The notes under the pieces were generated by a model. The model made no database searches, was not told the DNA's origin, and saw only the letters and a list, made by a program, of their open reading frames with translations. A DNA stretch of 64,000 bases from Cyanidioschyzon merolae (lineage: Eukaryota), in the NCBI GenBank assembly GCA_000091205.1, contig AP006487.2; one strand, given 5' to 3'. The translations under genes and the position numbers were made by a program. Below, one piece after another: positions 1 through 46,133 of the stretch (within the stretch, counting starts at the first letter, position 1; each line of letters opens with the position of its first letter).

Positions 1-1700
1 CATTGTCGACGTTTTCCAGTCATGGTACTGGCCCAGAAAAGTGGGCACTGTTTGAAGGTATGCTACCGTTCAGAGAGAACACGAGCGATCAAGCGGCGCA
101 CGCGGACGATCGTTACGGGGCGTTCATACGAGCGCGCGGAGGTCACCAACAGTTTCGGTTGTACAGAAGCAAGAAGCGTACATGCACTCACTTCGACTAA
201 GAGTTGTAAACGAAAATCTCCGATATGTCGTGTGGTTGGGTGCCAGGCAATGGCGCTGGAAGCACTGGAGCGCGCGATGACTGCACCCTTGCGGACTTGT
301 GGACGGCGTCCAACGAGTGCGGGAATCGATTCCATACGACTCCCGTAGATGCATTCAGGACGATGCCCTCGCATCAATAGCATGGGTGCTCAATGAAACA
401 GGCAGAGAAAAAGCACCTGAAACAGAGCCGGATACACGAGACGGTGTACGTCAGGCCGAGCGAACATCAGCTGGCGAGAATATTGACGACCAGAGGATTG
501 CAAAAGCGAGATTTCAGGAGCAAAATACCTCGATGTACATCCGGGAATGTCCGGTGTTCGCACAGCGCCCAACAGCTTGGTGATCAACGAACCTTTGAGG
601 GAATCGCGCAGTACTTCGTGTAAACACGGATCTGAAACGCTGAAGACTTGCGATGGAAAACAACAGTGACCATGACAGCGTGTATTTCATCCATGTTTGA
701 AGCAAGACACTTGTATGAGACGGTTCAGCAGTCCAGAATGGCTGCCATGCCCCATATATACACATGGAACGGTTTTCCTAGAAATTCATGAACGAATATC
801 CTGCTCCGTAATTCGACTTGACGATGTACCGACATGCAAAGCGGCGTCCTAGGTGCTCTAGCCTAGACGCCCGCCCCCGAAGACCTGCACGGTGTCGCCC
901 TGCGAGCCTTATTTACCGCACCATACATCCCTGGGATATTTATGATGGCTCCGGCCTTGAAGATCACGCGTTTGTGTGTACGTCAGCAGCGTCGATGCGT
1001 CGCTCTAAAATCCATCTACACAGGTGTTCACGGAATGCTCGGCATTTAAAAGCGAGCCCGCTCAACTTCGTATACAATGTGTCATGCATGTAGACTTGCA
1101 TTTTCGAACGAGATCCGTCATTGGGGCACCAGCTCGAGACTGATCAAGCATCAAGCTTCGTGCACGGTAGACAGGCTGTGCTATGAACGGTTCGGCATTC
1201 GACGCCAGGCGCTGAACCCAGACTTGCGTCACCGTACAGTGCGTTTAGGGTTCCATCAGCAGTGCCTCGTTCTTTGCGTTCGTCCTGCAATTCTCCAGGT
1301 CATAGAAGCGTATCCGCAGCATGAAACTGTTCAGTGTGAGCCGAAGTAGCAACATCCAGCATAGGCATTGAAGCGCGTGTCCTATAGATTCCAAGTGCCT
1401 GTGAGCGCTCCCGCACCGGCGATGCACCTTCGTACGAGGACGCGCTCCATACCAAGTCAGCCGAAACATTTCCTATGAATCAAGTGAGGCAGAACTCGCG
1501 ATTTGTGCACTAATCCAGAAGCACGCTTTCGGGAAAGCTTAGCAACAGAATTCGGGCGATTATGTTTTGGTCTATGGTCGAGTCTTGGCTGGGAATCCCA
1601 GCTACGCAATGGATACCGACGTCAGGGAAAGCGCTAACGCATACTCGGCACTCTACGGATTATATGAACGAGCCGTTGCCTCCAACAGGGAATATGGATG

Positions 1701-4939: not shown

Positions 4940-6762
4940 CGCTTACAACTCACGTCGTTTCGGTGCCGCTCAAGCGCAACACTGGATACCGTTTGCACCA
5001 CGCTGCGCCTCCGCTGCGTCACGTTTCGGGAAGCGCGTGCGACGCTCCAGCGGCGGGGCATCTCGCGAGGCGCCGGCGGCGGCAGCCGCAGTGCACGCAT
5101 CCGTTGACGGTTCATCTGTTCGGGAGCGCGCCTGCCAGCTGTTCACTTCAATTGCGTTCCACGTTCGAGTGCGTGTCGCATCGAATGCCTTGACGCGGTG
5201 TACCGTAGACACGCTCGACGTGCGCTCGTTCAACCATCGAGTCCATAAACGGCAGTCACAGCGTTGCGATGTCGTTTCCGCTGATACCGGTTACTGGGAA
5301 AGCACCGCTGCATCACGGTCCGCGCGATAGCCTCTGTGGCGTAGCGAGACTGTGACAATGAATGAGGGCTATGCGCGGCAGGCGTCGGACGCAAGCATGG
5401 CACTCGGCACGCACCAGTGTCGTTGCGTATACCTGCGAGCGAGCTGCAGACTGGCACCTAGGCTGTGCACGGTGAATCAGCAACAGCTTCACACTGCGTC
5501 GGGACATTGGACAAGGCTCGTCGAGCAGGATCGGCATCACCATTCTACTTGGCGTAAGCTGTGGGGCGTCTCATATTCGCAGCTCCATTGCTCTGCTCGT
5601 TATGGGCGTACGCTGGATCCATCTCCCGCTTCTGACAGATCTATGCATTGGGTGTGCGCAAGTCAGCGCAGAGGGATATCGCAGGCAACACGCTCTGGCG
5701 TGGATAGAAGGTTTACACAGGAAGCGGAGCGTACGAGCTACCTATAATTTTCCAGGACCTGCAGTCCGAGTGTGCATGATGCATGCGTCGCGCAAGAAGA
5801 TATCTCTGGTCATCGGCAGCTTGCACTTTTGGACATCGCTGTTTCTCGCCGTCGGCATGCACGAGCGCACTTGGTTTCCTCGGTGACTCGAATGTCGGAG
5901 CTGCCCGGCAGACTCGCGTCGACGCAAACTTCAACGTTTCCGCGACGCTTTGCCTGCAGAGAGGGCCGAATCGCTCAACAGGGTGCCTGGAGCCGGAGCC
6001 CGGGGCGGGCGCCCAGAACCTCGGCAAGACTGAAGCGCTCCCTGATGGAGCCAGATGCGCTGTGGTCGGCTGATATCGCATTCGGAGCTCCGAAACGCGA
6101 GTTACGCAACCACCGCATCTACCGTCGCCCGTTTTCGAAACGGCTACCTCCAAGCTGTGACCCTGCCGTCCGTAGATGTATCAGGAAATCAGACTTGTGA
6201 TTCACTCTAAAAATCCAATAGGTTCAATGACTGAACCCGCTGCTGTTCATGGAGCAGAGTTCATGGACTTTATCAGAATCCTCCGGAATGTGTATGCGTT
6301 CCCGGTCAGACGGCGTACTGGGCACAGAGGTTGCCGCTCCAGCGGACGCGACAAATGCGTACAACGCATTTGCTCTTGGTGGCGAGCGGCATTCGCTGCT
6401 CACTCGTAACGACGACAGCGCATCCAGCGCCTGTGATTCATGCGTTCATTTTCGATTCCCGGCGAATGCCGGCTTCATCGAGACTTCGCGGCAGGGTGTC
6501 TTCCGGTGAGCGGCCGACACGCGAACCCCGAAACGAAACCACCGCATGAACTACTCTATGCGATTTTACCGCTGTTGCTTAACACCCAGAGTCCGAGGAC
6601 GTATACGAGCATCGAATGCATCGTTTCGTGGTCTTCCACACAGAGCAGCGCGAATGCAGGCAAGCGATGCGCGTTCCAGCGTCAGAGTTGCACAGGGCCG
6701 GTAAACGAGGACCCCACGAGCTCTCAGACCATCCGATCCTGTTGTTTATGAACTTGAGTCGT

Positions 6763-8277
6763 CTACGCAATTGCACGTTTACGGCGTACGTATCTTTGCA
6801 CGAGCTCCGCAAACTGCGTCGCTGGACAAGCCCTCTGAATGAACGGATGCGTCAGGAGCCGATCTACGCTCCAACGATCCATGGGTTGCATCGCGAGGCA
6901 GGAGTGTAAAAAGTGGTGAAATTCTGGGCTCCAGCGGGCAGCTTCCGCCAGCTTGGGCGGCCCTCGGGTCGTGATCAGGAACATGGCCCGGAGCGGTGTC
7001 TCTTTGATCCATGGAGGCTCGCCCTCGGCGCATTCTATGGCGAGAATCCCGAGGCTCCAGACGTCAACTTTGTAGTCGTACTCCATGCTTCTGATGAGTT
7101 CGGGCGCCATCCAAAACGGAGTGCCAACGCATGTCGTTCGCTTGTCGCGCTCTGGTGTCAACTGGGCACAATATCCAAAGTCAGCGAGCTTGATGGCCCC
7201 CGACGATTGACCAAGCAGACAGTTATCAGACTTGATATCACGATGGATGCGACGTAGGCGGTGCAGCTGACCGAGCGCAATCAGAACCTCTCGGCAGACA
7301 TAGGCGATCTCTGGCTCCGTCATTCGTTCACCATGCTCTGCCAGATCATAAAGCAAGTCTGTGAGACTGCCCCCGTCCATGTATTCGAGAACAATCCACA
7401 TCGTGTTGCGATGGAGAAACGCCTCGTGAACCTGCACGATGTTCGCGTGGCGAGTGCTATGCATCATGAAGATCTCCTGCTCGAGCGCGCTCATGACCTT
7501 TTCGGACCGAACTTCGACCCTTTTCATCGCAACAATTTTGGTTGGATCGGTTCGAGAGGCTGCCACATAGACAACGCCCATTGCACCCTCGCCCACTTTA
7601 CGCAGGCGCACGTAGACGTCGCTGGGGTCTCGTTCCTGAATGGCGGGAAAGCGTCCCGAGGCCCTCAGTACAGGCTCGCCCCCGGTTTGGCGTGCATCTT
7701 CGGGGCTCGTCTCAGTGAGCAGCTTCGCAGCCGAGTCATCCTGGTGGAGCGCGGTCCGTTCGTTGCGCTCTTTTAAGGCTGCGACTTGGCTGGGATGGTG
7801 CGTTGGCGACGCCGCCCCAGATCGACGCAAATGAAAGTCCATGATATCGCGTACGACTTGCGGATTCGTCAAGACCTCTGTGCGACTGATACCGTTGCCA
7901 ACGAGTAGGTGCTCCCACTCGCGTGGGAGGCCAGAAAATCCCGTCTCAGAGGTGAGGTCGCGGCGCACAGTCACTTTCTTGCGAACCTTGATCGGTGTCC
8001 CTATCTGGGGTGTTTCCTCAGTACTGTCGGATACATCGTTTTGTTTCGGTGCTGTGGGCTTCATATTCGGCTTTCTGGTGCTGGCCGTCCCCGGATCCGT
8101 CGCGTTGTCTGGCGCGTGGCGTGCACAAGACGGCTTGCGCTTCACTCCAGTCGAGGCGTGCGTCGGGGTTCTCGTCAACGCGCTTAAGGCAGCGAGACCC
8201 GCTAACGCGCGCAGTGCGCCTTCAGGTTCAGCAGAGGTCTCCGGGCTCTTGGAGCTGCGCTTCACTCGTGTCTTCAT
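6763..8277 (-). CDS. Ser/Thr protein kinase, STE20/PAK family
   Basis: Kinase motifs present: GEGAMGVVY, VAMKRV, HRDIKSDNCLL, DFGYCAQL, GTPFWMAPE, DVWSLGILAIE. An N-terminal regulatory region carries a CRIB-like FSGLPREWEHLLVG. ATG verified at 8275-8277 (minus strand). Confidence 0.75.
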   Translation of the reverse strand: MKTRVKRSSKSPETSAEPEGALRALAGLAALSALTRTPTHASTGVKRKPSCARHAPDNATDPGTASTRKPNMKPTAPKQNDVSDSTEETPQIGTPIKVRKKVTVRRDLTSETGFSGLPREWEHLLVGNGISRTEVLTNPQVVRDIMDFHLRRSGAASPTHHPSQVAALKERNERTALHQDDSAAKLLTETSPEDARQTGGEPVLRASGRFPAIQERDPSDVYVRLRKVGEGAMGVVYVAASRTDPTKIVAMKRVEVRSEKVMSALEQEIFMMHSTRHANIVQVHEAFLHRNTMWIVLEYMDGGSLTDLLYDLAEHGERMTEPEIAYVCREVLIALGQLHRLRRIHRDIKSDNCLLGQSSGAIKLADFGYCAQLTPERDKRTTCVGTPFWMAPELIRSMEYDYKVDVWSLGILAIECAEGEPPWIKETPLRAMFLITTRGPPKLAEAARWSPEFHHFLHSCLAMQPMDRWSVDRLLTHPFIQRACPATQFAELVQRYVRRKRAIA

Positions 8278-9894
8278 CCGCAGTCACCGAAAGCCTTCAC
8301 AAACGCAAGCACAATGCGGGCGCTGGAACGCACCACCGGAGGTGCTCAGCTTCCGGAGGATCCCGATACACGTCGCGATGGCGGACACGCGGGCATTCGA
8401 ACAGCGGCCGCCGTCGGCATCGCGCACACCCAGCGCACACACTGCAACGGCCGGGGTGCGGCGGCGCTCATCAGGGACGGATCAGCGCCGGCGTGCTGTC
8501 CTCCGGCGCGGGGCTGTCGACAGCCGTAGAGCGCCCGCCGTTCCCGCGGCTGGAGAGGCGGCGGCGCTCGCAGTTCCCGCTGCACCCTGGTGCGAGTCCG
8601 GGAGCCTGCACCTTCAGGTTGCAGCACTGAGGGCGGTGGGGATCGGCGTGGGCGCGCCCAGCTCCACAGCATGGCAGGTCTCTGCATGGAGTGCATTTGC
8701 ACAAGAAAGTCGCATCGAGGACTCTGCGTATCTGGACTGCATGTGCGCTTTGCCGATACACGTATACCAGAATAAGACGGAACAGGTCCACGCAGCGAAC
8801 ACGGGCGTGCCTAATAAAGTTTTGATCGCTTCCCGTAAGAGTCAACACAAGATTTTGTGCGTATTTTTGTGACTTGTTATTTTTATTGCTCTTTTTTTGC
8901 TGAATTTCAATGTGCTGGTCTCTAATGTGTCTGCAGCTCCGTTTGTCAGCAGTCGAAGAATGCTGATGGCAGCGTTCTCCTCCCGAGTTCGCAGCATTCG
9001 ATTCTCATTCACGCATTTCGAACAGGCAGGCTGAAGTTGCGATCTCGGCTGCGCTTGTCATGATCATATCCTTTGTAGACAGCCTCAGTGCGCCCTTTGC
9101 AGCATGAACCTTGGCCACGGTCAGTGATTACCGTACGTGCACGACACGACACCTCTTCCGAAAAATGCCCTGTGCCGCACCAAGGAATGCTTCGCTGATC
9201 GGTGTGCGCGTTTGACTGGTACAGAGGGCCCGATGTGTTCCCTGTATTCGTTTTCGCGCCCGGTGCCGTGTTCTCCGATCATGGGCTTGCTCATGGCGAT
9301 CCTTCCAGGGTGTACGCTATCCCCTGCACGCACACGCTGTAACATTGGATGGGCGATTTTTTTGGAACGCGATCTTGTTCATGATGGAGCGGTTGGCGGA
9401 AGGGAATTCCAGGATGGTGAGCAATAGAAAAAATTTAGAGTCGTTTATGTTCAGTTCCTAGAACGCAGTGACATACTCTCTACTCTGAGTAATCGCCGCA
9501 ATGACTGGTGTGCAGCACGAGTCGTTGCTTCCGCTGTGAGCGGCGAGGCTGGATATCGGCGTCATGGCTGGTGCCTGCTCGCAGACGGGTGCTGCGATGG
9601 TCACCTGGCACCGCTTATGGCACCCAGAGAACCGCTTCTGCTGCACGTTCGAACAGACGACGGAGCCAGCGGACCTCTGTGACGACCTCGAAAGCTAGCC
9701 AGGTATTCCAGCTCCTTTGGCGGTGTTCCGCGACGGTTTCATCTCGGCAATGATGCAGCGGATGCACCTCGAGGACAATGGAAACCTACGCTTATCGAAG
9801 TCTGAGCGCGTCTTGTCGCAACGAACTCCAGAGACTGGCATGTTTCGCGTCTCGCATGATACGCTGGCCTCGTTTTAATGTTGCACCTCATTTG

Positions 9895-10700
9895 TGTTCC
9901 GCTTGCAGGTGCGTGTCATCAAGTGCTTCCTCGCGGGTTATAGCGGACGTGTTCAAAGAGCGTCCATTTTCAAAAATAAACTATCCTAGGGAGATGTGTA
10001 TGTATGAAAATCGGGGATCCTGATGTGCTAGTGTCGCCGGTTTCAACAGAAAAAACGAAAAATTCTCTTCTCACCGACCATCGAGCGAAGGAGAGCAAGT
10101 TTTATGAAAAAGTAGAAAAAGAGAGGAACGGCGGGTGAAAAGTTTTTGTATGCCTGATGTGACGATTACGAGACTGTAACGGGACAGAGGGCACACTGAC
10201 GAAGGCGCCTTGCATTGATGAGTCCCATCAGAGGCAGCAAACGCATGGAATTCGTGAACAGAGACTTGAACTCCGCCATCAAAATCAGACCATTTGTGTT
10301 ACAAAAGGCGAGGCGCGCGGAACTTACGTTAGCGAAAGGTTTGGGACAGCCTCTCAGGTTCGAAGTGTACACGGGACAAATTGAAACCGATATCTGGTTG
10401 CTGGTCAGAAAAAGGCTTCGAGGCGCCTGTGAGTGCGTATCATTTTCCCCTGTCGAGCCGACGCTCTCTGTGGTGCGGCATAGCCGTTCTGTCTCCGTGC
10501 AAGGACCGCATCGGCCCTGTAGACGCTATCGCCGACGCTCTGGGCATGCACTCGGCGCACGATAGAACGTACGGAACGACCATTATATCCGAGAGAAAGT
10601 ATGGGTTACGGAACGTGGAAGTAAGGCGTGGAATGAGGGATACCTTACAGCGCGCTGATGACGAGCGCAGAATCCGAGAACGCTCGCCACAGCAACCACT
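9895..10700 (+). mobile_element. Internally deleted (non-autonomous) copy (a) of the TnpB/Fanzor-like repeat family F, carrying the 3' module X
   Basis: Homologous at nucleotide level to 22497-23050 and to 16640-16990. A 5' block starting caggtgcgtgtcatcaag is shared only with copy (c). The 3' ~260 bp (10440-10700) is module X, shared with the LINE-like element. Confidence 0.45.
10215..10565 (+). pseudogene. C-terminal remnant of TnpB/Fanzor-like ORF (RuvC-III-like motif) running into module X
   Basis: KRMEFVNRDLNSAIKI fits the TnpB RuvC-III signature (D-x-N-A-A-x-N-I) with the Asp retained. It is homologous to KRMEFVKRGFNAAINLRRCAVL (copy b) and GDFDVTSNIRRCAVL (copy c). The reading frame continues into X (VRHSRSVSVQGPHRPCRRYRRRSGHALGAR). 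Confidence 0.35.
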
Positions 10701-13700
10701 TTGGCATTTTTTCACTGACAAAACGTTTACTTAGGCCAGCGTTCTCCGATTATGCGCTTTTTTCTTTTCTTTCTTTTTTTTCAGTGCGAGGTGAGGTATC
10801 CATCAACCCCCTACCTCCATGTTACATTACCTATACTTCGTCTCGGATATTCTGGTCGTTTCATACGTCCTATCGTGTGTGCCTAGTACCTGCCGTTCCG
10901 TATTCGCGTCTGCGCTTGAACCGCTGGAGCAGATAGCTCATAGGGCTAAAACAGCTTTTCTATACCACAGAGGGCGTCGGCTCGAGGTGTGCTTCATCCG
11001 ACGTAGAATCGGGTCTCGTCGTCAGTTTGTGCTCGTACAGTCTGCGGATGCAGGCTTGCCTTCGCTGCACGACACGCTGGAGAAACTTGGTTGTTAGGAT
11101 GAATTCTGGGAGCTGCCTCTCTCCTTCGTGATCATGCATGGAATGCATTGTTGTCGGTTGGCTATGCGGATTTGTGCTTGACACCCACTACAGAAGGAAG
11201 GCGTAGAGAGCACTAAACCCGTGTGCGCATCCGATCCGCTGGACCTTCCGCCTAGAAGGTAGCACGTGAGTTTGTTGGCCACTAATGAGCACTGAGGATC
11301 TGTTAGCGAACCATCAGTTGCCAGTGCTGCACTCAGAGTGAGTGTCCGGCCTTCGACTATCACGGTGTTGCCGAGCTGCTGCTGTCCTTCGAGGAGCTCG
11401 CTGCGCTCCTGCTTCTAGCGCGGCCACTGTAGGCCTAAATATGTCAGCGTCTCGGGGATTTCGTCTCGATAGCAGGTACAGTGTGACTCCCAGTGCGATT
11501 CCAGGGTTCCTATCCGGCTTAGAGCCGGTGCTGGTAGCCAGGAGCCACCAACGCTGATTTTGGCGAGCCACTGGGTACCTCGAGCAAGTCCCGGGAATTC
11601 CAGCGCCTCCCACCAGTAATTGCATGTGTATGCTAGGTTGTAGTTCCGGTATAGAGTCAAGCCGGCGTTACTCGCGCGACTGGTACTGTATCTACGTTCC
11701 CATATTGTTGTTCGGACCGTTCGCTTGAGGCGACGGGAGAATTCTATATTCCTGGGGAATGATTGGGTAGCGTGTTTTCGCCTAAGAGGCGCTTCAGCCA
11801 AATCTGCGCTGATTTCATCCAAGTGATCTTGCGGTGCGTTGGGGTCTGCATGGATATCCGACTGAACCAGGTGTTCATGGTTGGCCCTTTGCCCCATATG
11901 CGTGCCCGGCAGCCTGCTGCTATCGCCTCTGTCGAGGGTATTTGGAGTTCAAGTCCGAGTGCCAGCAGGTTGGTTGCTCTGCTCTGCATTGAGCATCCAA
12001 CTACAACGAGTCGCATTGCCCTGTTGGCGGCTGTCTGCAGACGCGAGGCATTTGTGTGCTTCATGCCGCACCATTCAGCACCACAGGTCGCAGGCTGGAT
12101 GATACATATCCTTAGTGCGCTGGTACGGATTGCTAAGGGGATAGAGGGGTCGGATAAGAATGGGCATGCGATCGCTGTACGTCTATGCATCTTGGCGATC
12201 ATCTCGTTAACGTGTGCCTTTTCGTCGAGCGTCGGCGTGAGACAGACCCTAGGTAGCGATATTTTTCCACGATTGGAATTTCCTGATTCTGCAACCGCCA
12301 CGAGCGATTGCGAATGCTCTGCGAGTCTCCATGGATGGCCATGACGCCGCACTTCGATGCTCCTATGCTCATCTCCCAGCGATCGGCCCAGGCGCTGACT
12401 TGTTCCATGCTAGCCGCAAGCGTTTCCGGGGCGGGTGCCAACAGCACGACATCGTCCGCAAATAGAAGGCCTGCGAGGCGGTTCCCATATGGGCGCTCCC
12501 CATCGGGCATCTCCACAGTCTATCCACGGCACCTCAAGCCCGTATTGTCTGTAGTTGTTAAGCAGATCGTTGATGAAGATGTTGAAAAGGAGCGGGGATG
12601 CAGGATCGCCCTGTCGCAGTCCACGGCGGATTCTTATCGAAGGGGTTCTTGAGCCGTCGCCTAGTCGGATGCGCATCCACGAGTCTGCATAGAGCGCACG
12701 GAAGAACGCTAAGCACTTTGCGGAGACTCCGGCTCGTTCCATCTTCATAAATGGAGCCTCATGCGGGAACGTGTCAAAGGCCTTTTGGAAGTCGACGAAG
12801 CATACGTAAGTTGGTTGTTGGTCGCTAATGAAGCGACGTTGCACCACTTCAATGAGGGTCAGGGCATGGTTCATGCACTCCTCGTGGCTCCGGAATCCAG
12901 CCTGTTCTGGGGCGAAGAACTTGCGTTCCTGGAGGCCGCTGTGGATACGGTTCGTGAGCATGGCGCGAAGTAGCTTCATGATTGACGGGATGAGGCGCAT
13001 AGTCCGGTAGATGTTCATGTCTGTGTGTGTGTGGGAGTCCTTTTTGAGGATCGGTACGACCTCGACAGCCCTCCGTACATCTGGGATGTACGCTTCTTCA
13101 AACATGCGTTGAATGAGCTCCAGAAGGCGTTTGCCTAAGATTGTGTCAGGTTCATCTGGTATCGATGGTGTCCCTGTTGTCCCGTCTTTTGGGGTCGCCA
13201 GTTTCATCCACTCCGCAGGGATACCGTCGATGCCAGGTGTTTTGCGATTGCTTGAGCATAGCAGAGTCCGAACAGATTCAGGCCAGAAAATTGGGTCGTT
13301 CCATTCCGGTACCGGGTCGAGGCGCGGTAGTTCTGCAGCATATCGGTGCCAATAGATTCGGTCTTAGCAGTGCCCAGTTGCGTCTTCATGTAATTCTGTG
13401 CCGTGGTCCGTCCAGGCCTCATTCACTGAGGCACGCTCCGTCCTCAGCGCTTCCTTTTAACAGTTGGTGTGAGCCCCAAGCACTTTCTTGGTGGGTCCAG
13501 TCTCGATCGGATGTAGCCTGGGGTTTCATCTTCGTTGGTGCTCTTCAGCATAGATTCCGCCAGGGAGGCCATTTTGCGGTTTCGATCCTCTCGTTTGTCT
13601 TCTCTGGAAAGTTTCTTCGTTCTTTTGATAGCTTCCTCATGTTGCGCCTGTAGCGCCGGTAGCGCTGCCTTCGCTTCCTTGTCTCCGGCGTTGGCGCGTA

Positions 13701-14955
13701 TGGCGGTGCGGTTGACAATCTTGTTGAGTCGGTGGCATTCATGAATCCGAGTTTTGGTACGTCGTTTGAGGTACTGCGGCTTGCTACTGTTGTGTTCAGG
13801 TGCAAGCAGTCCCAATTTTCTGGCAATCTTCTGATTCCCATCTACAAACTCGCGTGCCAATTGGTCTGAAGATTTGTATTCACGGCTTTTCGGATCTTCA
13901 GCGCTGTGAGCAGGTGCCTGGGATTGGCGACGGCTTTCTTGAGTTCCAGCTGGGGTGCCCTTTCGGGGGATACCTTGTGATGGGCTCGTTTGGGAGTTCT
14001 TCTTTCTATTCTTCTGTTTTTTCTTGCTGGTCTACTTCTTCTTCGGGCTCTTTCCTGAGCTGCTTTCTCTGGTTATTTTGCATTTAAGGGGATCATGAGG
14101 TTTCTGTGTCTCTTTCTCCGTACCTCGTTGGGTCTCTTTTCCAATTGTAGAGTCCTCGACTTGTATCAGTTCTTCATTACTGTACTGGTAATTCGATATC
14201 TCGTGGTTAAATACCGAGGCGATCCCGCTAATATTCCATGATGCGAAACCTATCGAGTCGTAGCGCATAAGGGAATAGGAGTAACGCTGCGGTACTCCAG
14301 AGATACGTTGTCGATTTAGACGCAGCTTCCACAGGGTGTGTGAGAGCACATGCCACCATTGCCTCCTGCATTCCAGTCGTTCACTGAGTGTCTGCCGCAG
14401 CGCTAGCGTAGAATCAGATGTACATTAGTCAAGGTCGATTCGAATGCGAACTTTGTCTTTCCGGACGCGTGAAGCTACCCTCAACCATTGGGAAAAGTCT
14501 GCAAACCACCATTTCAGCGGCTTTGTATCCGCTCCCCAAACACATAGGCGGGCAAGTCGCTTATTCCACTTTCGACAGTGAGCATACTGCCAGCTGTCTT
14601 CCAAAGTATCCGCCGAGATTGTTTCCAAAGTTGAGGTAGGTACTCAAGGTAGAAGGTGAAACTGAGCCCGAATTCAGGGATGGATCCAGTATTTGTGCCC
14701 GAACCTGCAGCGTTGTTTCGGGAGCAGCGGATGACTGCGCTCAGAATTATCGTCATCATTCTCTGCTACTGCCTACGCCCCTCCGTTCGTTGCGGTCAAG
14801 GCCCCTGGCGTGGACTTCCTTCGCAGTCGCTCAAGCACCCCGCGTTAACCCACTTTCAGAGGTTCTCCGGAAAGACTAGACCCCTTAGGCGGACGTGGTT
14901 TGTGGGGCTTTTAAGATAGTGGTTCCTTGATAAATAGTTTGCGACTAGTTTGCAT
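10655..14955 (-). mobile_element. LINE-like non-LTR retrotransposon E, copy 1 (frameshifted; ORF1-like region, RT, 3' module X)
   Basis: A ~600-bp 5' region is conserved with copy 2 (ends gataaatagtttgcgactagttt at 14931-14955). RT fragments lie in three frames on the minus strand. The 3' tail 10713-10965 is module X. No APE endonuclease domain is visible upstream of the RT. Confidence 0.7.
12199..13207 (-). pseudogene. Reverse transcriptase domain of LINE ORF2 (frameshifted)
   Basis: LINE RT motifs are present: MRLIPSIMKLLRAMLTNRI (motif 0/1), FVDFQKAFDT (A), GLRQGDPASPLLFNIFINDL (B), LLFADDVVLLA (C, FADD). The domain is split over ORFs 12410-13207 and 12199-12516, so frameshifted. Confidence 0.8.
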
Positions 14956-15159
14956 CGCGCTCGGTGAGCGCACCTCGGAGATCGGGCAGGCATGAGACGC
15001 TACGCGCATGCCACTGTTGAAGGGAAACACGTGACCTTGATCAATAGCGTGTTGTTCTGCTGTAAAAGTCGGATTCCCGTTGAGGGCGTAGCAAAGTATA
15101 GTTTTCAGTTCATTTCTGTTTCAACCCTCAAGTAAAAATACTCGAGTGTTTTTTCGCAG

Positions 15160-15167
15160 TATATAAG
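15160..15167 (+). promoter_or_regulatory. TATA-like box (tatataag) in AT-rich island upstream of the TnpB-like ORF
   Basis: tatataag sits in an unusually AT-rich stretch (15120-15300) ~210 bp upstream of ATG 15377. This is sequence-only evidence. Confidence 0.2.
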
Positions 15168-15223
15168 AGAAGCGTTCAAAGAGCATTCTTTTTAAAAAAA
15201 CTAAAAAAAGGAAAAGTATGTAG

Positions 15224-16990
15224 GAGCAAGTCCACGATCCTGGAGGCCCACTGTCGCAGGCTGCCAGAAAGAAAACAAAAAACAGTGCCGAGTCCAGAAG
15301 AACAGGGAGAGAGAAGAAGAACCGAAGAGGGGAGGCCCTACGTCGAAGGTGGCAAGAAAGACGACTGTACAACGAGATGGTGGTGAAAGCCTTTCTTCTT
15401 GGACATATCAAGGATCCCTACAGGGAAAAGTTGCGAGACGCTATCGAAAAACGTGTCGACTCGTATTCCGAGAGTATTATCAAGGCGTCGTCAGGGCTGA
15501 TGCATTTGGCGAGGGAGATGTATCGCGACATGGCGCACATGGAAACAGTCGAGATTCCGGACGAGTTTCTCGACATGACCTTTATTTGTCAGCTAATGCT
15601 TGGTACAGCGGAAACGCGGAAGGAAAATGTGCTAGTGCACGCCCTCCACGAAGAACATACCTTTTACAGCTTCAATGGTACTCGATACAAGGTGACGGAG
15701 ATATTTACATCTATGGGGCGATGAAGTACCTCACGAATCTGAAGAACCATTTGACAATGAACCTCGAACGTTTCACGGTACGCGCCGTGTGTGCACTCTA
15801 CCCGGGCCTATCTCGCAAAGGAAAATGGGCGATTATCAATGGCATCACGAAAGATCGTAAGCATGAAGATGAGACGGATTTCGTTGACAAGAAGGCGTCA
15901 AACGAGAGCACGAATGAAGCTTCTGTAATCCGTGCTGCTATTCAAGAGCACCGTGCAATCCTGGGACTGGATTATCCAGCAGAAAAGATATCAGAGTTGA
16001 AAAAAGATAAGGAAACATACGATCGCCTCATTCTACGGTATTTCGTGTTTCTGGACCAAGAACTCGAACGCGAGGCGGAGATGAAGGTGAATAGGGGAAA
16101 AATGAAGAGTGGGAGAGACGGAAGGCTGTCCTAACGGGGAAGCGCTTCAACGTGGTTCCATTGTGCAACATCAAGTCAGATTTTGTGACCATCGGCTCCG
16201 GCGTCCTTTACGGCATCATGAAGCAGATCAGTCCGGAGTTCAGTGTCAGCAGGGAGGACTTCACCGGCGAAAACCGGGAGACGTACTGCAAGAGTATCTT
16301 CGATTTCAAACGTCTGAGAGTGAGCAAGCAAAAGTTGTTTACTGGGATGATCGTAACCGATGGAGTAGAATTGTGTGCAAACTATCGGCGGTTGAAGAGA
16401 GATCGGCCAGTCCCTCCCTCGGCTGCGCCCGTGACGAAGGATCAAGAAAACAAAGAGGTGTATCCTGCGACGCAGGAGGTGGAGGATAGAGACCTTGTCG
16501 TTGACGTGACCAAGGATGAAGAAAGGGAGGAGGCGGATCTTGCGACGCAGGAGGTGCAGGATTACGACCTTGTCGTAGGCGTGGACCCTGGGAATACGAA
16601 TGTCCTAACCATCGCAGCACCGAAGCGTGCGGAAGATGGAAAAGTGCCAGCGGAATCCTGAAGATATACAAAAGTACGGACCGCTGACGGAAGGGCGAAT
16701 GGAAAGGAGAGCGAAAGTTCGAGGATTGCTTGCATCAGTAAGTACAACCAGTGATGGCAAGAAACGGATGGAGTTTGTGAAGCGAGGTTTTAATGCCGCA
16801 ATCAATCTACGGAGATGTGCGGTGCTAGAGAATAAACCTCCAGACTGGACAAGAAGGAACCTTGTTGGACAATCTCTCAAAGGTGAACTATATGAGAGAA
16901 AGCTGGAAGCAGTAGTGGGTAGCCAGTCCAAAAAGACGGGGGGGGGGCGTCTGCACGTCAGCTGGAGACGATTTGTCTAAGGCGCGTTCG
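15224..16990 (+). mobile_element. Longest copy (b) of repeat family F with TnpB/Fanzor-like ORF; 3' truncated within the start of module X
   Basis: An open frame runs from 15224 with a basic, NLS-like leader (RKKTKNSAESRRTGREKKNRRGEALRRRWQERR). The 3' part is homologous to copies (a) and (c) but lacks their ~100-bp segment. The RPL37 gene follows at 17118. Confidence 0.45.
15377..16980 (+). pseudogene. TnpB/Fanzor-like (OMEGA-type RuvC nuclease) gene, degenerate
   Basis: The reading frame is split over frames 2, 1, 0, 1, with switches near 15700, 16100 and 16640, each at an A-run. The RuvC-I-like block is [22 protein letters not shown] (compare TnpB vGIDLGxxxxat). The RuvC-III-like block is KRMEFVKRGFNAAINLRRCAV (compare TnpB DxNAAxNI). 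Only ~70 aa separate them, so RuvC-II and the zinc finger are absent, consistent with an internally deleted pseudogene. Confidence 0.4.
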
Positions 16991-17117
16991 CCGCCATTGC
17001 TGCGTACTGCCGGCGTCGTTCGACTTCGAACGGCGTTCGTGACCGAAGCTCATCCGCGGATCCAGCTGCACGCCGCTGCTTCATTCAGGACGCGTTGTAT
17101 AACAACGTCAGGGAACC

Positions 17118-17438
17118 ATGACGAAAGGAACATCTTCCAAGGGTCGCCGTCACGGCAAATCACATACACTCTGTATCCGTTGTGGACGACGATCGTACCA
17201 TATCCAGAAAAGTACCTGTGCGAGCTGCGGGTACCCGTCGCCGCGAAAGCGGACTTACAACTGGAGTTTGAAGAGCAAGCGGCGACGCACTACAGGAACT
17301 GGGCGCATGCGGTACTTGAAGACGGTTGCTAGACGGTTTCGAAACGGGTTCCGCGAAGAGAACACTCGTAAGGCGATAAAGAGGACAGTGGCTGCCGCTC
17401 CCGCACAGGAGAGCGGCCAGGAAGCAGCGAGCTCTTGA
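17118..17438 (+). CDS. RPL37: 60S ribosomal protein L37 (eL37)
   Basis: [68 protein letters not shown] carries the eL37 C4 zinc ribbon and conserved termini. ATG verified at 17118. Confidence 0.85.
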
Positions 17439-18717
17439 TTCGGAGTAGACGCGGCGCTACCCGTGTAGCACCGTATGCAGCGCAGCCTCTCGTCGGAGAG
17501 CAGCGATTGAGGTTGCTAATGGGGTCTTTATGTGGTGAATCGAACTGGTGTAAAACTTCTTCCGAGTGTCCCCTAGCGCTCATACCAACACCCATGGACG
17601 TTACGTCGCTCGTATCGCGTACGCGGTGCGCGCTTGTCGCAGCACGTATTGCCGTGGCCCTTTGCGGGTCCGTCGAGCAACTTTGTACCACAGCTGCATG
17701 GCTTGCGCTCTTGTTTATGAGCCTGGTACGACGCGAGCCGATACGTTCCAGTCCCGACTGGAGCGCATCGGGTACCCGTTCCCGCTTGGAAGCTTGGGCA
17801 CCCATCGCACTGCGTCGGCAGCGTTCCTAAATCGCGCATATCACCAACGATGGCCCGACACGAAATGGTTTCCGCGCGTCGATTCTCTTCCTTCTGTCCT
17901 GAATAGGCGGAGAACATCATGGCTTGTCCATGCCTACCGGTGCATGAGCACCCATCCAGGAGTCGGTCGTGAGCGTTCTCGATCAGTGCTCTGGAGGCCG
18001 CCAAGTTCATTTGAGGAAGCCCGACTTGCATGCGATGCGGCATGCAGCGGCGGGAAATGGCCTGCCGCTTCACACTGGGCGTAAAGTTGGGAGCAGTTGG
18101 CGTTGCTGACTCGCCGTTGTCGTTGTCGATGGCGAGTCGTGTACTTCGCTCGTGCTGAACTCGATGCAAAAATTGCTCGCTCGCATAGAAAACATGATAT
18201 TCGAATCATGCGCATATGACGGACGGCGAATACGCGCTACAGCACATGGGCAAAGCTAGTCCACGCTGCGACTCGTATTCTTCCATCAAGCCCGAGGTTT
18301 CCCGATGGATAGGCCGAAGGTTTTCGCAGGTTTGCGATCAGCGCTAGCGCGGGCGCTGGGCATTCATTCGTGCTCCTGGCTTGTGCTTCGTCATCGAACT
18401 TGAGCTACTCCGCACCGCAATCATTCCCGGAAACGGCACTGGTTACTCTTCAACTGGCATGCATTTCGGTATTTCGCGGCATCGACGACGGCGTACACTC
18501 CTGATGCACCACAGCGTAGAACTCTTGCTCCCGGGAGATGCCACTATTATCTTGCTTGCTGAACGTGTAAGCAGTTACGAAACTAGGGCGCGCTGCTCCT
18601 CCATGCAAGTCGACAAATATCGTGTTCTGGAATCTGCTCTGATACATCCGTTCTACATCATAAATGAACGTATCATCTATGCTGGCGTCGTAGCTCGTTG
18701 TCCAGTACTGCGCGGCG

Positions 18718-22496: not shown

Positions 22497-23050
22497 AGTC
22501 AGGTGTGTGTCATCAAATGCCTTATTCGGTTTATAGCAGATGGGCTGCAAAGTGCGTTCATTTAGAGAAATAGAGAATATAAGATATAGGTATGGAGATT
22601 GAAGTCGAGGATCCTGGATTGCCTCTGTCCACGGGTGTCGGAAAAGAACGGGAATTTTCTCATCTTTTCGACGATCGAGCGAAGAAGACCAAGAAGAGGG
22701 GAGATGGACCACAAAAATGTGTTTGCCCGACGGGGCGATGACGAGAATCTAATCGCACAGAGGGCACGAGTTCTGGCAATCCCTGCATTGATGCGTTGCA
22801 CCAGATGAACTGCATAGAACGGCTCGTGAACGGAGACTTCGACGTCACAAGCAATATCAGGAGATGTGCGGTGCTGAAAACGAGACTCGCGGAGCTGACG
22901 CGAACTAAATTCGAGTGGCAGCCTCTAATACCCCCAGTGTGCCTGGATAAAAACCGCAACCGATGGCAGTCGGCGGATAGAAAAAGACTGGGCGGTGTCT
23001 GCGCGTGGGCAGCTATATGTACTCTCGATGGTGGTAAAACATTGCACGTT
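22497..23050 (+). mobile_element. Internally deleted copy (c) of repeat family F (TnpB-like C-terminal remnant)
   Basis: The 5' block gtcaggtgtgtgtcatcaaatgcc is homologous to copy (a) 9895-10010. It then joins at ggatcctg to the region homologous to 16650-16990. The ORF 22796-23056 carries VNGDFDVTSNIRRCAVLKTRLAELTR. Confidence 0.4.
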
Positions 23051-38145: not shown

Positions 38146-41100
38146 GCGAAGACCGGATACGCCTCGCGCGTGATGCCCACTGCAATGAACGCTGGAAAAT
38201 CTGTACCTGGACGATGTTTTTGTTTTTCTTCGTTTGTCTCGCAGATGTTCCATAACACGAGGTTTGTATCCTATCGATTGGTGAAAGGTGGCGGTAATTC
38301 GCTATCTCATAACTTGTTGCTTGCGAAGAACGGCCTCAATTGAACAAGTCCATTGTTCTACAATCAGCAGGAGGACACCTTGCTCTGCTCCGAGTGCGTG
38401 TCCTGGGCATTGTCGTGCACCCAAAACAGAGCTTGTCGAACGCTATCTCCACAACCGCCTGTTCGTCCATGCTCTCCTCTCTAAGCGTGTTCCAGGGAAC
38501 ACGAAGAACACAACCCACAGGAGATGAGTTCTCTGCTCCACTAGAGAGAACGGCGATGCAGAGACACGAATGAACGAAGAAGAAAGCGCGCTTGTACGCT
38601 GGACAAGTCGTGCACTGAACAACGCATGACCGAATTCGCAGTGAATCGTGGATACGTATAACAGGGGGCACGGGTGCATTCGTTTCACTCGAGGGCAGGT
38701 GATTCGGGAGAAATCATAGTACTACGTATGGGTACGCTTTTGATACCCGTATACCGTAATTCGTAAAGAGTTGACAATGGAGAATGGCGACAACAACAGC
38801 CGCCCGAGCTACGATGCTGTCGTGCGGTCGCAAGTACATCGCTGAGCGAACAGGAGCGTCCATTTGCTCATCGTTCGTCGAATCACGCCTTGTGGCATCT
38901 GCTTCTCGCATGCTTCTGAACCGCGCCTAGACAACGTCGGTTTCTATCATTCAAAAGCGGCGAAAGCGTAAGCGATGAATCTTGGTATTGGGTTGCGCTT
39001 CGGGTTCGTCTGTTCTCCCAGGTTCGATTGACTCGAGGGCGTCCTCTCTCGAATCAAACGCCAAATTTACGCTGACAGATCAGGTGACGAGATGCTCGCT
39101 TCTGTAATCCACACGTTCTTCGACACATCGTTTTCGATATGTACCAGTCCGGATCTGCTGTGTTGACTCTCTGCTTGTGCGATACCGGGAGCGACAAGGT
39201 ATGCTTCTGCCTGGGGGTTTTCTCGCATCGGGGAAAGTGACGAAAAACTGTTTGAGAATTCGTCGATACATACTTAAAGCATGCGGTTCGCGCTATCCCC
39301 GTCTACCCAGTGTAAATACAAGTGTGTGCACGTCTGTGGATCTCGGAGAAACAAACGAATGTGGCGTACCATCACCACATCCAAGCCGCACAGCCAAACA
39401 GCGGAGAACAAGACGGAACTGCACGGCAATGAAGAGCAAGATGCTCCCGACGGGCGGACGTGTAGGGCCAGGAGCGAAAGAGGCATCTGGAGCGGACACA
39501 TCTCTCTGAAACCGTTGCCAAGGCCTCCATCCTTGAGCAAATCGACAAGCCGAGTCTTGCGTAAAGTGAGATGCTGGATACCAATGGGGATCGCTTGGTT
39601 TCCTACACGAGGACGGCTCGCCGCTTTCCCCTCGCGCTGACACACCTCGTGAAGCATCTCTTCACACAAGTGCCGAACGCTATGCCACCAGCTGTCCACG
39701 TTTCTTCGGTACTCTTTCGATGAAATCATCGTCCGACAACAAGGGTCATGTCCGGGATAGACGGCACAGTGCTGTCTGATTGTAGGATCAGGGATTTGCA
39801 CATCCGCTTCTCAGCGTACTTTGGCGTGTCGCCGCTACCCGTCGGCGATCGGAGCAACTACAGCGTATATCGAAAAAGCATCAAAAAACGTCGAAAACCA
39901 ATACCCTAGACGGGTCAATGTCGAGCGCTTCCTGAATCGTCCTCTGGAGGTCTAGTATCCGAACTTCCTTGGCCGGCAAAAGCGCGGATTTATAGAAGGG
40001 ATGCATCGCTTTCGAGTGCCGATCAACGTCCAGATGACTCTCGCGGACAACTTATGGCAGGAGTCCACGGGATTGCGTTGAAATCGCCACCGGTTACATC
40101 CGTACGCAGCCCAGAATCGTGCATGAGCCAACTCGCTCAAAGCGAAGGAAAAAGGTAAATCAATCGAACGTCGTGCGATTTCCTGGTAACCGCTGGCGGT
40201 GACCCCGCTGGTTCATGCAAACGCTGCACACCTGCTCCTTTGAGTGAAGCGTACACGCGATGCAGAAATTGATTCTATACGATTTCCGTTGATGCGTTCA
40301 GGATGCTATTGTCGCATCACGAGCACGGGTGTATGCTGAAACGTGAAGAGAAGAAGAGCGCGAAACGAATCCCTATCCACTAGATGCTGGGCGTGAAGCT
40401 GACCGCCGACCTTCAGATGACGAGTATATCAAAAGTCAGATGCTCGTCATGGTGTGCTGCTACCAGCAACCACGCACTCGCAAGCACTCTCTGCACAGAG
40501 ACCTGAGAACGTCTCGATGCACATTCGGAAATGTCTTGTGCTGCCTAATCCGCCATCGGCCTCGTGTCGGGGCGAACGTTCACGGGCATCGGTCAGGACT
40601 CGGTATGCGCATTGCGTTGAAACACGGACTACTTACGATGAAAAAATCAGTGGTCAATGGAGCATAACTGGATGCTCGCTTGGAGCCACGCATTGATGCG
40701 GTACCGTTCAGCAATCCAGTGTGCCTCGAGCACCGTATCCATGCACGTCGAACGACCTTTCCGGACGAGCGTTGAACGATGATACCAGTTCATTCTTCGA
40801 TATCGCTGGATTCCTGACTCCAAGACCTTAACTGGAAATCGGGTGCTTCGTGTCGTCGACCAAGGGATCGGCTCGTTAGCCATTTCGCCTTGGCGCTCCC
40901 GGCACGCTTCAGCGAGTCCAGAGACGGGGCAACGCGAACCGGATGTCTCGCAGAGTAGCTGCGATTATTGGCGCGTCCCATTTCAAGTGCATGATGCTCC
41001 AACTTTCATAATACGCTGTGACGGACACATCGATGCAGCCGATTACCAACGGATTCGTAGACCTGTTGATGACGATTTTGATGAAGCATACTCCGCATGG

Positions 41101-43447: not shown

Positions 43448-44567
43448 GCGTATATCTTAAAGTTTGGGTCTCTTATGATTGTCCTTATCGAGACCAGCCT
43501 TTGAGGGCATTTTATGCGATTGTATCCTTTCTGGTGCTCTTATCTCCGGTTTCAATACGCCGGACGCTTCTTTCCCTGCAGCTCCGTTGCAGACCGTCGA
43601 AGCCTGTGGGGTGCAGCAGGAACGTCCTTATTTCGCTCTGCATGGCTATTGTCGATGCGGTTCGTGTACGGGTGGAAGCTGCGCCTTGCGGTTCGTTTGC
43701 AACATGATCCTCTTCCTAAACAGCTTCCGCGTGTTCTTCGCAGCGTTTGCTTGTAGCAGATCTCGAGTTTTATAATGTGACCATTCGTATCTCCTCCATA
43801 CAGTGCACTGCGACGCCTAGAGGCTTGCTTTGCTGGCCTGTACGTGCCCTTGACGTGCTCGGGAGACGTCGCTCGATACCCTCCTCCGTTTCCGCGCCCG
43901 GTGCCGTACTCGCCGTTCACGAGCATCGTCTAGGAGGTTCCCTCGACGAGGGCGCTGTCAGCTGCATGTGCAAGCGCGCACTGCTGCCTTCAGAGGAGGT
44001 TTTTCGGAACGCGATGTTCGCTGTGATGAAATACGTACGTGAAGAGAAAGTCAGGCTTGAGAAGAAGCTGAGAGATCTCGATCCGTGTACATCCCTGACC
44101 CGCGCAGAGCGGTACCGTACTCTGCACTACAAGCGATACCTGCGATGATGCAGTTGCAAACGCATGACCCGTTTTGGTGCAAATAGGAGACACGGGAGCC
44201 TCCGGGAGCATACCCCATGAGAGGTATCAAGCTGCTGTCGAGTGCTGCTTCGTCGATTGCCTCAAACATAGGATTGCTTGTCTTTCGATGTAAATAAGAT
44301 GTTTCGTGTGAGGGATTCAGTTCTGTCTCGAAAAGGGCCGCAGATCGTGCCGCCAATTGGCATCATCGAGCCTGTTTTGCCCGTCATTGCACCAGCACGA
44401 ATAGCAGTGTCCATGAGCTCCCTCGGAGCGGAAACTTCAAAAACTTGAAGCATGCGTGATTCGCGCAAGCTCTGTATGAGGAAACGAGGCGTATGGTTGA
44501 CTGTACGTAGGAATTGTCGGGATGGTATCGACAATGTAAGAAACCTCTGTTTGCGGGCGTAACGAAT
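43448..44567. repeat. 1.1-kb dispersed direct repeat R, copy A (near-identical to 54738-55856)
   Basis: It aligns base-for-base with copy B with a few mismatches over ~1.12 kb. The embedded ORFs (43747-44148, 44262-44720) are duplicated and unrecognised. Confidence 0.9.
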
Positions 44568-46133
44568 CAGTTTGCGTCCGGTCACGTAACGCACTCTCGA
44601 TGCAAAGCATTGGAAGAGGCATCCAGAAAAGCAGACGGAGAATCCTAAAACTCCGAATGGATACAAAGGCCCCTTATTTTTTTTCATTCCCAATATATCT
44701 TGGGTGCAGAGCTGGAGCAAATTTCGGAAACAGCCGCAAGGCAGGAACGCAGCGGTCAGTTTAGTGATGCTGCTGATTCTGACACGGGTGCAGACTCCCG
44801 CACTGACGCGACGCCAAACGCTTTCTCTTTAGCACAATTCCCAAGCGTCTACGTAGGCTTTGCGCAGCTTTTTTATAGCTGAGGGTAAGCTGTTAACCAC
44901 TTTGCGGTCGTGCATACTTCAGATTTGCTGCGAGCAGGCTCGGAAAGCTTCGCTTTCGTGGGAACGGCGCCACGTCATGACAGATTGCCATGTCAACAAT
45001 GATGATCCACGAATGCGTTGCGGGCGGTGATTCTTTGAACGCAGAGCAATTCGTAAACACAGCGACGGTCGGCAACGTTTTCTGAAATGGACATCTCCAG
45101 AATGCCACAAAGATCCATCACGAAATACAGAGCCTTAAACGGGATATCAGACGCAATGCGCAACCTGGACACTGCCGTTTCCAAGGTCGATGTCTCCGTT
45201 TCGAAACGCTAATGCAAAGCGATTTTAGCGTATCGGTAAACTGGAGGTCCATTAGCGGCCGCCGTGCAGAGGTACCAGGGGCCGCATGCGGCGCTTGCAA
45301 CCATAGCCACTCAAAATCTTTTCTGATCAGGTTGTTATTCTCGACGCGTCAACAAACAAAGCAAGACAAAAGCCCAAAGACGTCCTCGGCCGTGCAGTGT
45401 GGTGTCGTCATTCCCTTGGAGATGTCATAAGAAGCGATTGTACATGCGGCTGTTGAATTGTTTACGCAGCACGGGCAAAGCGCCGCTGGTTCAGCTGGAA
45501 TCTCTCACTGAAGAAGCACTACAGCCAGCATTTGACCGGGCGCTTAAAGCACATCGACAACGATCCGTATTGGCGCAACGCTGAGCAGCATACGGCGCAT
45601 CACGATGTGAGCGGGTGCAAACGCAGCATCCCGAGCTGCAGGCCATCCGTGCAGGCATGAATTCTGTCTCGCAAGGCCTGCGCACCCTACGTCACCCAGT
45701 GCTAAAGGCAAGCATGAAGCGACTGGTGTGTTGCTCGCGAACGCATCGGTATCGCGCATTACACCCGGTAGTCACCAGTGTAGGTGCATTGCGGGTGTGA
45801 ATCCCGCACCAAGTACGATTACATAGATATGCCTCGCCTAGTCCCATGGAGCAAGCGAGGTCATACCAGAGCGTGGATCTACCGCTACGATGTCCTTTGC
45901 GCGCAGTTGTTTCCGTCAGTCCGGGCTCCAATCTCGCAGAGAATGCCAAAATAGCTCTGTTGGGTATGTTACTGCTTGCTTCCGATCACGACGGAAACTG
46001 CTGTGAAAAAATTCCGCATGGGAGCCTTGACAGCCGCTCTCTGCGTTCTTCCACACTCAGCATACATCTTGTATCCAGCAAATCCATGACAAGCGCACAC
46101 TGCGTACGCAGGGCGCAGGGCTTCATGAATATT

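Follow-up and report, generated by a model that had tools for sequence, protein, structure and literature searches.

Background

A single family of Fanzor1-encoding repeats, CMe-1A, has been described in Cyanidioschyzon merolae, with ~150 copies that are ~80% identical to their consensus (Bao and Jurka, 2013, Mobile DNA 4:12, PMC3627910). The consensus is ~3 kb in length and without terminal inverted repeats (TIRs), target-site duplications (TSDs) could not be determined, and the 5' 635 bp share 95% identity with another repeat, TE-N2_CMe; an intact protein is still encoded by some of the copies (PMC3627910). The family pattern given by the same authors places a C4 zinc finger between [TS][TS] and RD (PMC3627910). 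Characterised Fanzor1 proteins include SpuFz1, PpFz and GtFz (PMC10432273, PMC11423790, PMC10530073). Fanzors have a "rearranged catalytic site", in which the residue at the canonical RuvC-II Glu position is inert and a conserved alternative Glu is located downstream (Jiang et al. 2023, PMC10530073). We analysed a 64-kb stretch of C. merolae DNA (contig AP006487.2), called the window below, and find that positions 14952 to 17037 on its plus strand are almost certainly a dead copy of the Fanzor1-encoding repeat that Bao and Jurka named CMe-1A.

The repeat family represented in the window shares several features with CMe-1A. Both are found in the same species, carry a Fanzor1 open reading frame (ORF), have neither TIRs nor recognisable TSDs, and comprise many copies that are ~80 to 87% identical, most of them decayed and few intact. 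The ~3-kb size of CMe-1A compares with a 2.75-kb core plus a ~630-bp module in canonical copies of the family studied here. This module, which precedes the core in 14 of 38 related copies, matches the 5' 635-bp TE-N2_CMe part of CMe-1A. The window copy differs from CMe-1A in having a 521-bp internal deletion. The element is a 5'-variant, internally deleted member of the published CMe-1A family, and is thereby already known rather than new.

Results and discussion

Identity of the protein family

When its four coding segments were stitched into one protein, the window copy matched 93 database proteins with 64 to 75% identity. The best match had E=1.3e-219, and the signal is therefore far beyond chance; full-length relatives are ~750 aa long. 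Searching again from the remotest match of the first round (P0080, 652 aa) gave 170 diverse full-length relatives of ~600 to 700 aa, including one from the green alga Tetrabaena socialis, and an exhaustive search with a hidden Markov model yielded 2,174 cluster representatives of the family (E<=1e-3). The precomputed Pfam label of this family is DUF8286 (PF26935), and a literature search under "DUF8286" found no paper.

A preliminary description, made from the window sequence, had proposed that the gene is TnpB/Fanzor-like, and both profile and structure searches uphold this proposal. A profile made from an alignment of 40 diverse members (profile A2) was searched against all PDB sequences and matched three solved Fanzor1 proteins, namely PpFz of Parasitella parasitica (9cf0, E=2.4e-20), SpuFz of Spizellomyces punctatus (8gkh, 6.1e-10) and GtFz of Guillardia theta (9cer, 3.3e-4). 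In these alignments, the DPG, DEFRT and NRD..NAA.NI motifs of the family line up with the corresponding Fanzor motifs. Residues 1-418 of the stitched protein align with profile A2 in hhalign with a probability of 100% and E=1.4e-72. An AlphaFold2 model was made of the relative P0080, rather than of the window copy (pLDDT 87.9, pTM 0.87). In a Foldseek search of this model against the PDB, ranks 1-7 were all Fanzor1 structures (E 4e-18 to 1e-15, TM 0.52-0.69), and Cas12f, Cas12X and Cas12i followed. The Cas12f1-like TNB domain PF07282 scores 26.9 bits in one member (P0148; the gathering score is 26.3), 25.2 bits in a second, and weakly in others. By profile search and predicted fold, the family labelled DUF8286 is clearly Fanzor1.

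Three acidic residues, D389, E565 and D612 in P0080 numbering, are invariant among the 40 diverse members and make up the RuvC triad (Asp, alternative Glu, Asp) of intact copies. At the canonical RuvC-II strand, intact relatives carry AYG[AS]G[RK], which has no Glu, and an invariant Glu lies ~35 residues downstream in the sequence VDEFRT. In the alignments this Glu falls on IDEFRTS in PpFz and on LDEYKTS in SpuFz, and the RuvC-I Asp falls on DPG/DPN of the same two proteins; in the window copy the region with the Glu is deleted. No CxxC...CxxC pattern occurs between DEFRT and NRD in the 24 of 40 members where this segment could be extracted. In place of the zinc-finger Cys pairs, the family shows only ...RGLLWC.ST..., although the position of the TNB domain (PF07282) is kept. 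The expectation of the preliminary description that intact copies would have CxxC...CxxC was thus mistaken, as even intact members of this clade are without the C4 zinc finger.

Structure of the window copy

The window copy is larger than the 15224-16990 given in the preliminary description. Its full extent, 14952 to 17037, is 2,086 bp, versus 2,749 bp in an intact relative with which it shares 82.8% identity over aligned columns. This relative, at 5671-8419 of metagenome contig L001 (protein P0001), served as the reference for boundaries, by blastn, and for lesions, by MAFFT alignment. The 5' limit at 14952 (GCATCGCGCTCGGTGAGCGC...) follows both from blastn to L001 and from the point at which an adjoining non-LTR (long terminal repeat) retrotransposon, or long interspersed element (LINE), ends, 14951. 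The 3' limit is at 17037 (...CGTCGTTCGACTTCGAACGGCGTT). The same two limits are seen again in dozens of copies from metagenomes, and the flanks outside them are unrelated between copies. On sequence comparison, the element is homologous over its whole length to ~2.75-kb elements with a predicted protein product of ~750 aa.

Features of the copy are described here in their order along the plus strand. Just within the 5' boundary, the sequence can be read as a hairpin, GCGCTC-GGT-GAGCGC (14957-14971), whose GCGC...GCGC stem is also present in other copies, with a variable loop. The frame-2 translation of 15179-15376 is a basic N-terminal leader resembling a nuclear localisation signal, and aligns with the N-termini of P0007 (MRSFSRKKTNTKRKRIEKEVEDPGG...) and P0001, which share it. 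Its Lys/Arg-rich part, AARKKTKNSAESRRTGREKKNRRGEALRRRWQERR (15224-15376), is the leader that had been noticed at the start of the frame.

Four coding segments follow, each recognised by tblastn. Segment A (15377-15690) corresponds to the N-terminal helical/REC part and is 75% identical to residues 9-135 of P0001, and segment B (15691-16092), also REC, is 68% identical to residues 135-269. Segment C (16098-16639) carries the WED strands, a linker and the RuvC-I strand. Segment D (16636-16980) includes a C-terminal TNB remnant and the RuvC-III helix, and ends in a TAA stop codon at 16978-16980; it is 78% identical to residues 675-752 of P0001, and residues 422-549 of P0018 also match. Only the REC, WED, RuvC-I and RuvC-III parts of the Fanzor fold are kept.

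The two RuvC motifs on which the preliminary description was based are present, in the order and orientation reported. The RuvC-I motif GVDPG (16578-16592), with its catalytic Asp codon GAC retained at 16584-16586, is part of a peptide encoded at 16560-16625. The RuvC-III motif, R-G-FNAAINL (16783-16809; read from the sequence and an alignment of 27 DNA copies), is part of the peptide KRMEFVKRGFNAAINLRRCAV, which is encoded at 16762-16824 in the same orientation, in another frame. These motifs were said to lie ~70 aa apart, and we measure ~67 codons; the spacing is this short because of the 521-bp deletion.

A tandem repeat with a 75-bp (25-aa) unit, detected with TRF and self-blast, occupies 16430-16583 with 2.1 units and ends within the RuvC-I strand. 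Repeat number varies, with 2 units in the window copy, 4 in L001 (7146-7505) and more in P0027, and the repeat is also seen in P0019. The two extra units of L001 amount to an in-frame length difference of 150 bp from the window copy. The 25-aa repeat, ...ATQEVEDNDLVVDxxKxEExKEA..., lies directly before the RuvC-I strand and includes it, and each unit resembles a decoy of this strand, DxxVVG without DPG.

Lesions of the window copy

The reading frame changes three times, as had been described, but the proposal that all three changes occur at A-runs holds for only one. The first is the loss of one base, aligned to L001 at 15690 and read as a G of the downstream AAGGTGAC stretch. The second is a 1-bp deletion aligned at 16092, where the lost base is read as an A of a GGAAAAATG run (about 16095-16103). 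The third is the 521-bp internal deletion, whose length is not a multiple of three and whose junction in the MAFFT alignment with L001 lies at 16635-16639, in a GATGG microhomology (between two GATGG pentamers). Lost through this deletion are ~174 codons, namely those for a helical insertion and the RuvC-II strand (AYGAGRW), as well as for the alternative catalytic Glu (VDEFRTS) and the initial half of the TNB region. The absence of the RuvC-II and zinc-finger region, which the preliminary description had pointed out, is accounted for by these 521 bp missing relative to the intact L001.

Other lesions are smaller. The RuvC-III Asp has become Gly through two substitutions, with GGT at 16786-16788 versus GAC in other copies. 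The RuvC triad is incomplete, with the first Asp present, the region of the Glu deleted and the third residue replaced. In-frame stops affect the leader, which a TAA (15164-15166) precedes and a TAG (15221-15223) interrupts, and which also has small insertions and deletions relative to L001, and there is a 3-bp insertion near 16938 within a G-run. Given the deletion, the two frameshifts, the leader stops and the Asp-to-Gly change, the window copy cannot encode a nuclease. Judged by these lesions, the copy is a pseudogene of the Fanzor1 family and no functional member, as the preliminary description had concluded.

Element ends and a candidate omega-RNA

The 3' untranslated end (16981-17037) consists of a GGCG...CGCC hairpin (16981-16995), a linker, a terminal hairpin (17014-17035) and TT. 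The terminal hairpin has 10-11 bp, including a G.U pair, and reads CGTCGTTCGA-CT-TCGAACGGCG. The 3' boundary, ...GGCGTT, is precise, with unrelated flanks beyond it in >25 copies. Both termini and both 3' hairpins are kept in the window copy. Covariation in the GGCG...CGCC hairpin is modest: of 24 copies, 13 have CG at alignment columns 170/177 and 6 have GC. The omega-RNA scaffold of SpuFz1 is 75 nt and is built from a pair of stems plus a linker (PMC10432273), and the ~57-75 nt that follow the stop codon, up to ...GGCGTT, in the family studied here likewise have two hairpins and a linker. The 3' end of the element is a candidate omega-RNA scaffold.

No TIRs are visible at the aligned ends of the copies. 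A search for TSDs by eye revealed none at the window copy, at the composite of LINE and Fanzor (flanks of 10707 and 17037) or at the aligned ends of other copies, and no transposase ORF is found within or beside the window element. Two known kinds of mobile element with hairpins at their ends were considered and rejected. A Helitron-like element would also have a 3' hairpin and no TIRs, but the element here begins with GCATCG... and finishes with ...GGCGTT instead of TC...CTRR, and it has no Rep/helicase. Peel-and-paste transposition of the IS605 kind would fit the hairpin found at each end, but a Y1 transposase is absent from the surroundings.

The first seven nucleotides after ...GGCGTT, in the window (17038 onward) and at other loci, are often GGTG-rich, for example GATGGTG, GTTGGTG, TGGTGTG and GGTGGTG. 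This weak tendency, the only pattern seen at the flanks, could be a trace of a terminal sequence that has decayed, or reflect a slight preference for certain targets.

Several observations weigh against reading the element as a CMe-1A copy of Fanzor1 type with an omega-RNA at its 3' end. The four frame segments have no meaningful Pfam match, the stitched protein alone gives only noise against the PDB (phmmer), and a narrow profile of close relatives (A1) has no significant PDB match; the link to Fanzor therefore passes through relatives. Of the check that had been proposed, a profile search with the stitched protein, the direct Pfam and PDB searches failed, whereas the route through the diverse profile A2 and the P0080 structure search succeeded. 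The clade is without the C4 zinc finger, and the nuclease activity of its members is a prediction. RNAalifold gives a weak result for 24 3' ends (-10 kcal/mol, with a covariation term of +0.44), with some support only for the two hairpins of the 3' untranslated region. The fold of the window 3'-end RNA has -32.3 kcal/mol and z=-1.7, and a search of 14500-17500 against Rfam at E<=1 returned no match. The window copy does not have the 5' 635-bp module of CMe-1A, and the sequence upstream of 14952 is instead the 5' end of a LINE. Assignment to CMe-1A rests on species, architecture and the published description.

Other copies in the window and in metagenomes

By tblastn, the window contains seven copies or fragments of the family, which are the main copy and six others, mostly 3' or C-terminal pieces. 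These six, together with 71 related loci in hot-spring metagenomes that share the boundaries and have unrelated flanks, agree with the earlier suggestion that a Fanzor-like family has been active in this genome. A C-terminal fragment at 10170-10420 (+), found in the ORF list, has 45-48% identity in tblastn. The ORF at 10215-10565 reads ...KRMEFVNRDLNSAIKI and retains the RuvC-III Asp (NRDLNSAIKI), as previously stated. A 5'-truncated 3' end of another copy, at 61024-61255 (-), was found by self-blast and alignments to be 75% identical to 16800-17037. The other four were detected with tblastn. They are a C-terminal fragment of a decayed copy at 50482-50862 (-) (P0018 residues 414-539, 45% identity, E=8e-23), an old, strongly decayed copy at 39481-40476 (+) with weak N- and C-terminal matches (27-36%, E 3e-4 to 3e-9), a short RuvC-III relic at 22823-22927 (+) (53-57% identity, E 1e-3 to 9e-6), and a decayed fragment at 3-500 (+) that corresponds to P0001 residues ~549-705 and continues past the window start (27-31%, E 8e-8 to 3e-10).

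Copies are pairwise 84-87% identical, and their tree is star-like. Among ~70 copies, one distinct copy has a full-length open frame with all three motifs, namely L001, which has a near-identical twin (L002). Its frame at 5800-8256 is free of stops over 819 codons, with the first ATG after the basic leader.

Host locus

The locus is eukaryotic and nuclear, as had been assumed: seven window ORFs exactly match annotated proteins (BAM79380-BAM79396) of chromosome 5 of C. merolae strain 10D. This strain is a red alga with a finished assembly and very few introns, its nuclear genome being almost intron-free, and the species is thermo-acidophilic. No protein is annotated at 14952-17037 in the reference set, where the flanking annotations are BAM79381 (retroelement) and BAM79382 (RPL37). 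The "retroelement" annotation belongs to an ORF at 12410-13207 (-), and the RPL37 start codon is 81 bp downstream of the element. A host gene follows directly, and in the same orientation, after three of the seven copies: RPL37 after the main copy and, after two others, uridine kinase and a URB1/Npa1-like gene.

Two other repeats were seen in the window. A direct repeat of 1.1 kb (43453-44568 and 54738-55856) is 97.5% identical, contains short ORFs only, and is much younger than the Fanzor and LINE copies. At 1700-2087, a 130-bp unit occurs three times in tandem with 98% identity.

Junctions with a LINE

A 4.2-kb LINE is located at 10707-14951 (-). It has an RVT_1 domain (E=3e-19), a FADD motif and a short A-tail (10707-10712), and its 5' end adjoins the Fanzor core head-to-head at 14951/14952. 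A second copy of this LINE, at 61256-63370 (-), is internally deleted and 87% identical.

Precise joints of the same LINE with the Fanzor core occur at 12 or more loci and take several forms. Its 5' end is head-to-head with the core 5' end in five loci, the window included, and five loci have its A-tail immediately before a core of the same orientation. In L001 and L002, a LINE truncated at position 2987 abuts the core 5' end (L001:5667-5671). Joints between internal positions of both elements are found in L067 (387-388) and at 61255/61256 of the window, where the fragment at 61024-61255 is joined to the A-tail end of the second LINE copy. Further examples of junctions are L013:1645-1657, L019:1049-1054 and L046:965-966. 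At position 1 of the core, at least five different partners are joined on the upstream side. If a single LINE-Fanzor composite had been amplified, copies that share a kind of junction would be expected to form a clade; in the star-like tree they do not. A statistical association of Fanzor1c with LINEs has already been reported (PMC10530073).

Pieces of the LINE 3' region are also found near Fanzor copies. Between the fragment at 10170-10420 and the LINE tail, the window has an inverted partial LINE 3' region (10453-10658, corresponding to ~10792-10991). Several Fanzor copies (L038, L045, L052, L054) have a similar LINE-3'-like piece of ~200 bp located 100-480 bp upstream.

The junctions might mean that the Fanzor core is copied via RNA by the neighbouring non-LTR retrotransposon instead of by a DNA transposase, a proposal that we regard as doubtful. 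It would account for a single precise 3' end, for a terminal hairpin whose need of G.U pairs suggests a structure of the RNA strand, for the absence of TIRs and TSDs, and for the many 5'-truncated 3' fragments. LINE and Fanzor copies are also equally diverged (~85-88%), in those 12 or more loci the core, at its 5' end or at internal breaks, meets the LINE at its A-tail, at its 5' end or internally, and same-orientation chimeras are a product of template switching by reverse transcriptase. Against this, half of the junctions are head-to-head, the 3' end of Fanzor is unlike the LINE tail, and the nesting of elements in transposable-element (TE) islands, or a hot spot for LINE insertion at the core 5' hairpin, would likewise explain the junctions. 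Possible origins of the junctions are a hot spot for LINEs and short interspersed elements (SINEs) at the core 5' hairpin, template switching, or plain nesting in TE-rich intergenic islands. Recurrent precise junctions of this kind bear on the question of how Fanzor1 elements without a transposase move.

Proposed function of intact members and rival explanations

By analogy with the characterised Fanzor1 proteins SpuFz1, PpFz and GtFz, an intact member of the family would enter the nucleus by means of its basic N-terminal leader and associate with an omega-RNA that is transcribed from its element's 3' end. In the present family, this RNA probably corresponds to the final ~60-75 nt, which include two small hairpins and end in ...GGCGTT. 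Sequence directly downstream of the element would act as the guide, and the D/E/D RuvC site would cut matching double-stranded DNA beside a short target-adjacent motif. If the analogy with TnpB holds, cleavage would help the element to persist or spread. The window copy could at most supply RNA, serve as regulatory sequence or be a passive repeat.

The window copy might instead be a noncoding "ghost" that is still used, either because its intact 3' end (16981-17037, with some coding-derived sequence before it) provides an omega-RNA in trans to intact Fanzor copies elsewhere or because the element is the promoter or 5' region of RPL37. We consider this unlikely. Retention of both termini and both 3' hairpins is what such a role would predict, Fanzor-less "ghost" loci that conserve the omega-RNA have been described (Saito et al., PMC10432273), and the position of three of the seven copies directly upstream of same-orientation host genes speaks for it too. 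However, three of seven is within chance for a compact genome, the signal for conserved structure is weak, and the window copy is as diverged as all others (~83-86% identity), with no sign of special constraint. A reading of the locus as a gene that still functions, with introns, programmed frameshifts or assembly errors behind its frame changes, has very little probability. One frameshift in an A-run and another beside a G pair are at typical sites of sequencing error, and the frames are open between lesions. But the 521-bp deletion, which is not a multiple of three, removes the RuvC-II strand and the invariant Glu, the change of the RuvC-III Asp to Gly needs two substitutions, the leader contains stops, the genome is finished and poor in introns, and the reference annotation has no gene here, so that this reading is refuted as far as sequence analysis allows. 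A chance resemblance, with GxDxG and NAAxN motifs from an unrelated protein family, would agree with a Pfam label that is only DUF8286 and with fragments that alone match nothing in Pfam or the PDB, but it is refuted by the profile matches to three solved Fanzor1 proteins, the full-length fold matches and a PF07282 score above threshold in one member, and its probability is next to nil.

Interpreted as a dead Fanzor1 copy, the element mostly confirms the published picture of C. merolae as a host of an old, mostly decayed Fanzor1 family. A Fanzor1 clade without the zinc finger has been hidden under the DUF8286 label, and the locus itself is unannotated in the reference protein set. Since the clade lacks the C4 zinc finger and the host is thermo-acidophilic, an intact member of the L001 type could be an unusual and possibly heat-tolerant RNA-guided nuclease with a compact TNB domain. 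The points of remaining interest are this zinc-finger-less clade under a DUF label, its rare intact relatives and the recurrent retrotransposon junctions.

Comparison with other known systems

The family shares with SpuFz1 (8gkh), PpFz (9cf0) and GtFz (9cer) the fold (TM 0.52-0.69), the order of WED, REC and RuvC, and the basic N-terminal leader. It also shares with these proteins the motifs DPG, DE[FY][RK]T[ST] and NRD...N, as well as a Gly in place of the canonical RuvC-II Glu and a Glu ~35 residues later. Sequence identity to these proteins is only 14-17%, and, unlike them, the clade described here lacks the four TNB Cys residues and has a 25-aa repeat before RuvC-I.

Prokaryotic TnpB of IS200/IS605 elements, such as ISDra2, an RNA-guided nuclease whose eukaryotic relative is Fanzor, and Cas12f were compared as well. 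The elements described here are in a eukaryotic nuclear setting with no TnpA and no CRISPR array, and their protein differs from TnpB and Cas12f in its rearranged glutamate and in a much larger N-terminal REC region. Assignment to prokaryotic IS200/IS605 TnpB itself was ruled out by the eukaryotic host, by the lack of a transposase ORF within or beside the element and by the replaced RuvC-II Glu.

The window copy resembles the "ghost" Fanzor loci (Saito et al. 2023, PMC10432273) in that nuclease coding capacity is lost whereas the element ends and the presumed omega-RNA region are kept. The published ghost loci have inverted repeats and a strongly conserved omega-RNA (PMC10432273); in the window family, by contrast, there are no inverted repeats, and the presumed omega-RNA region is conserved to the same degree as the rest of the element.

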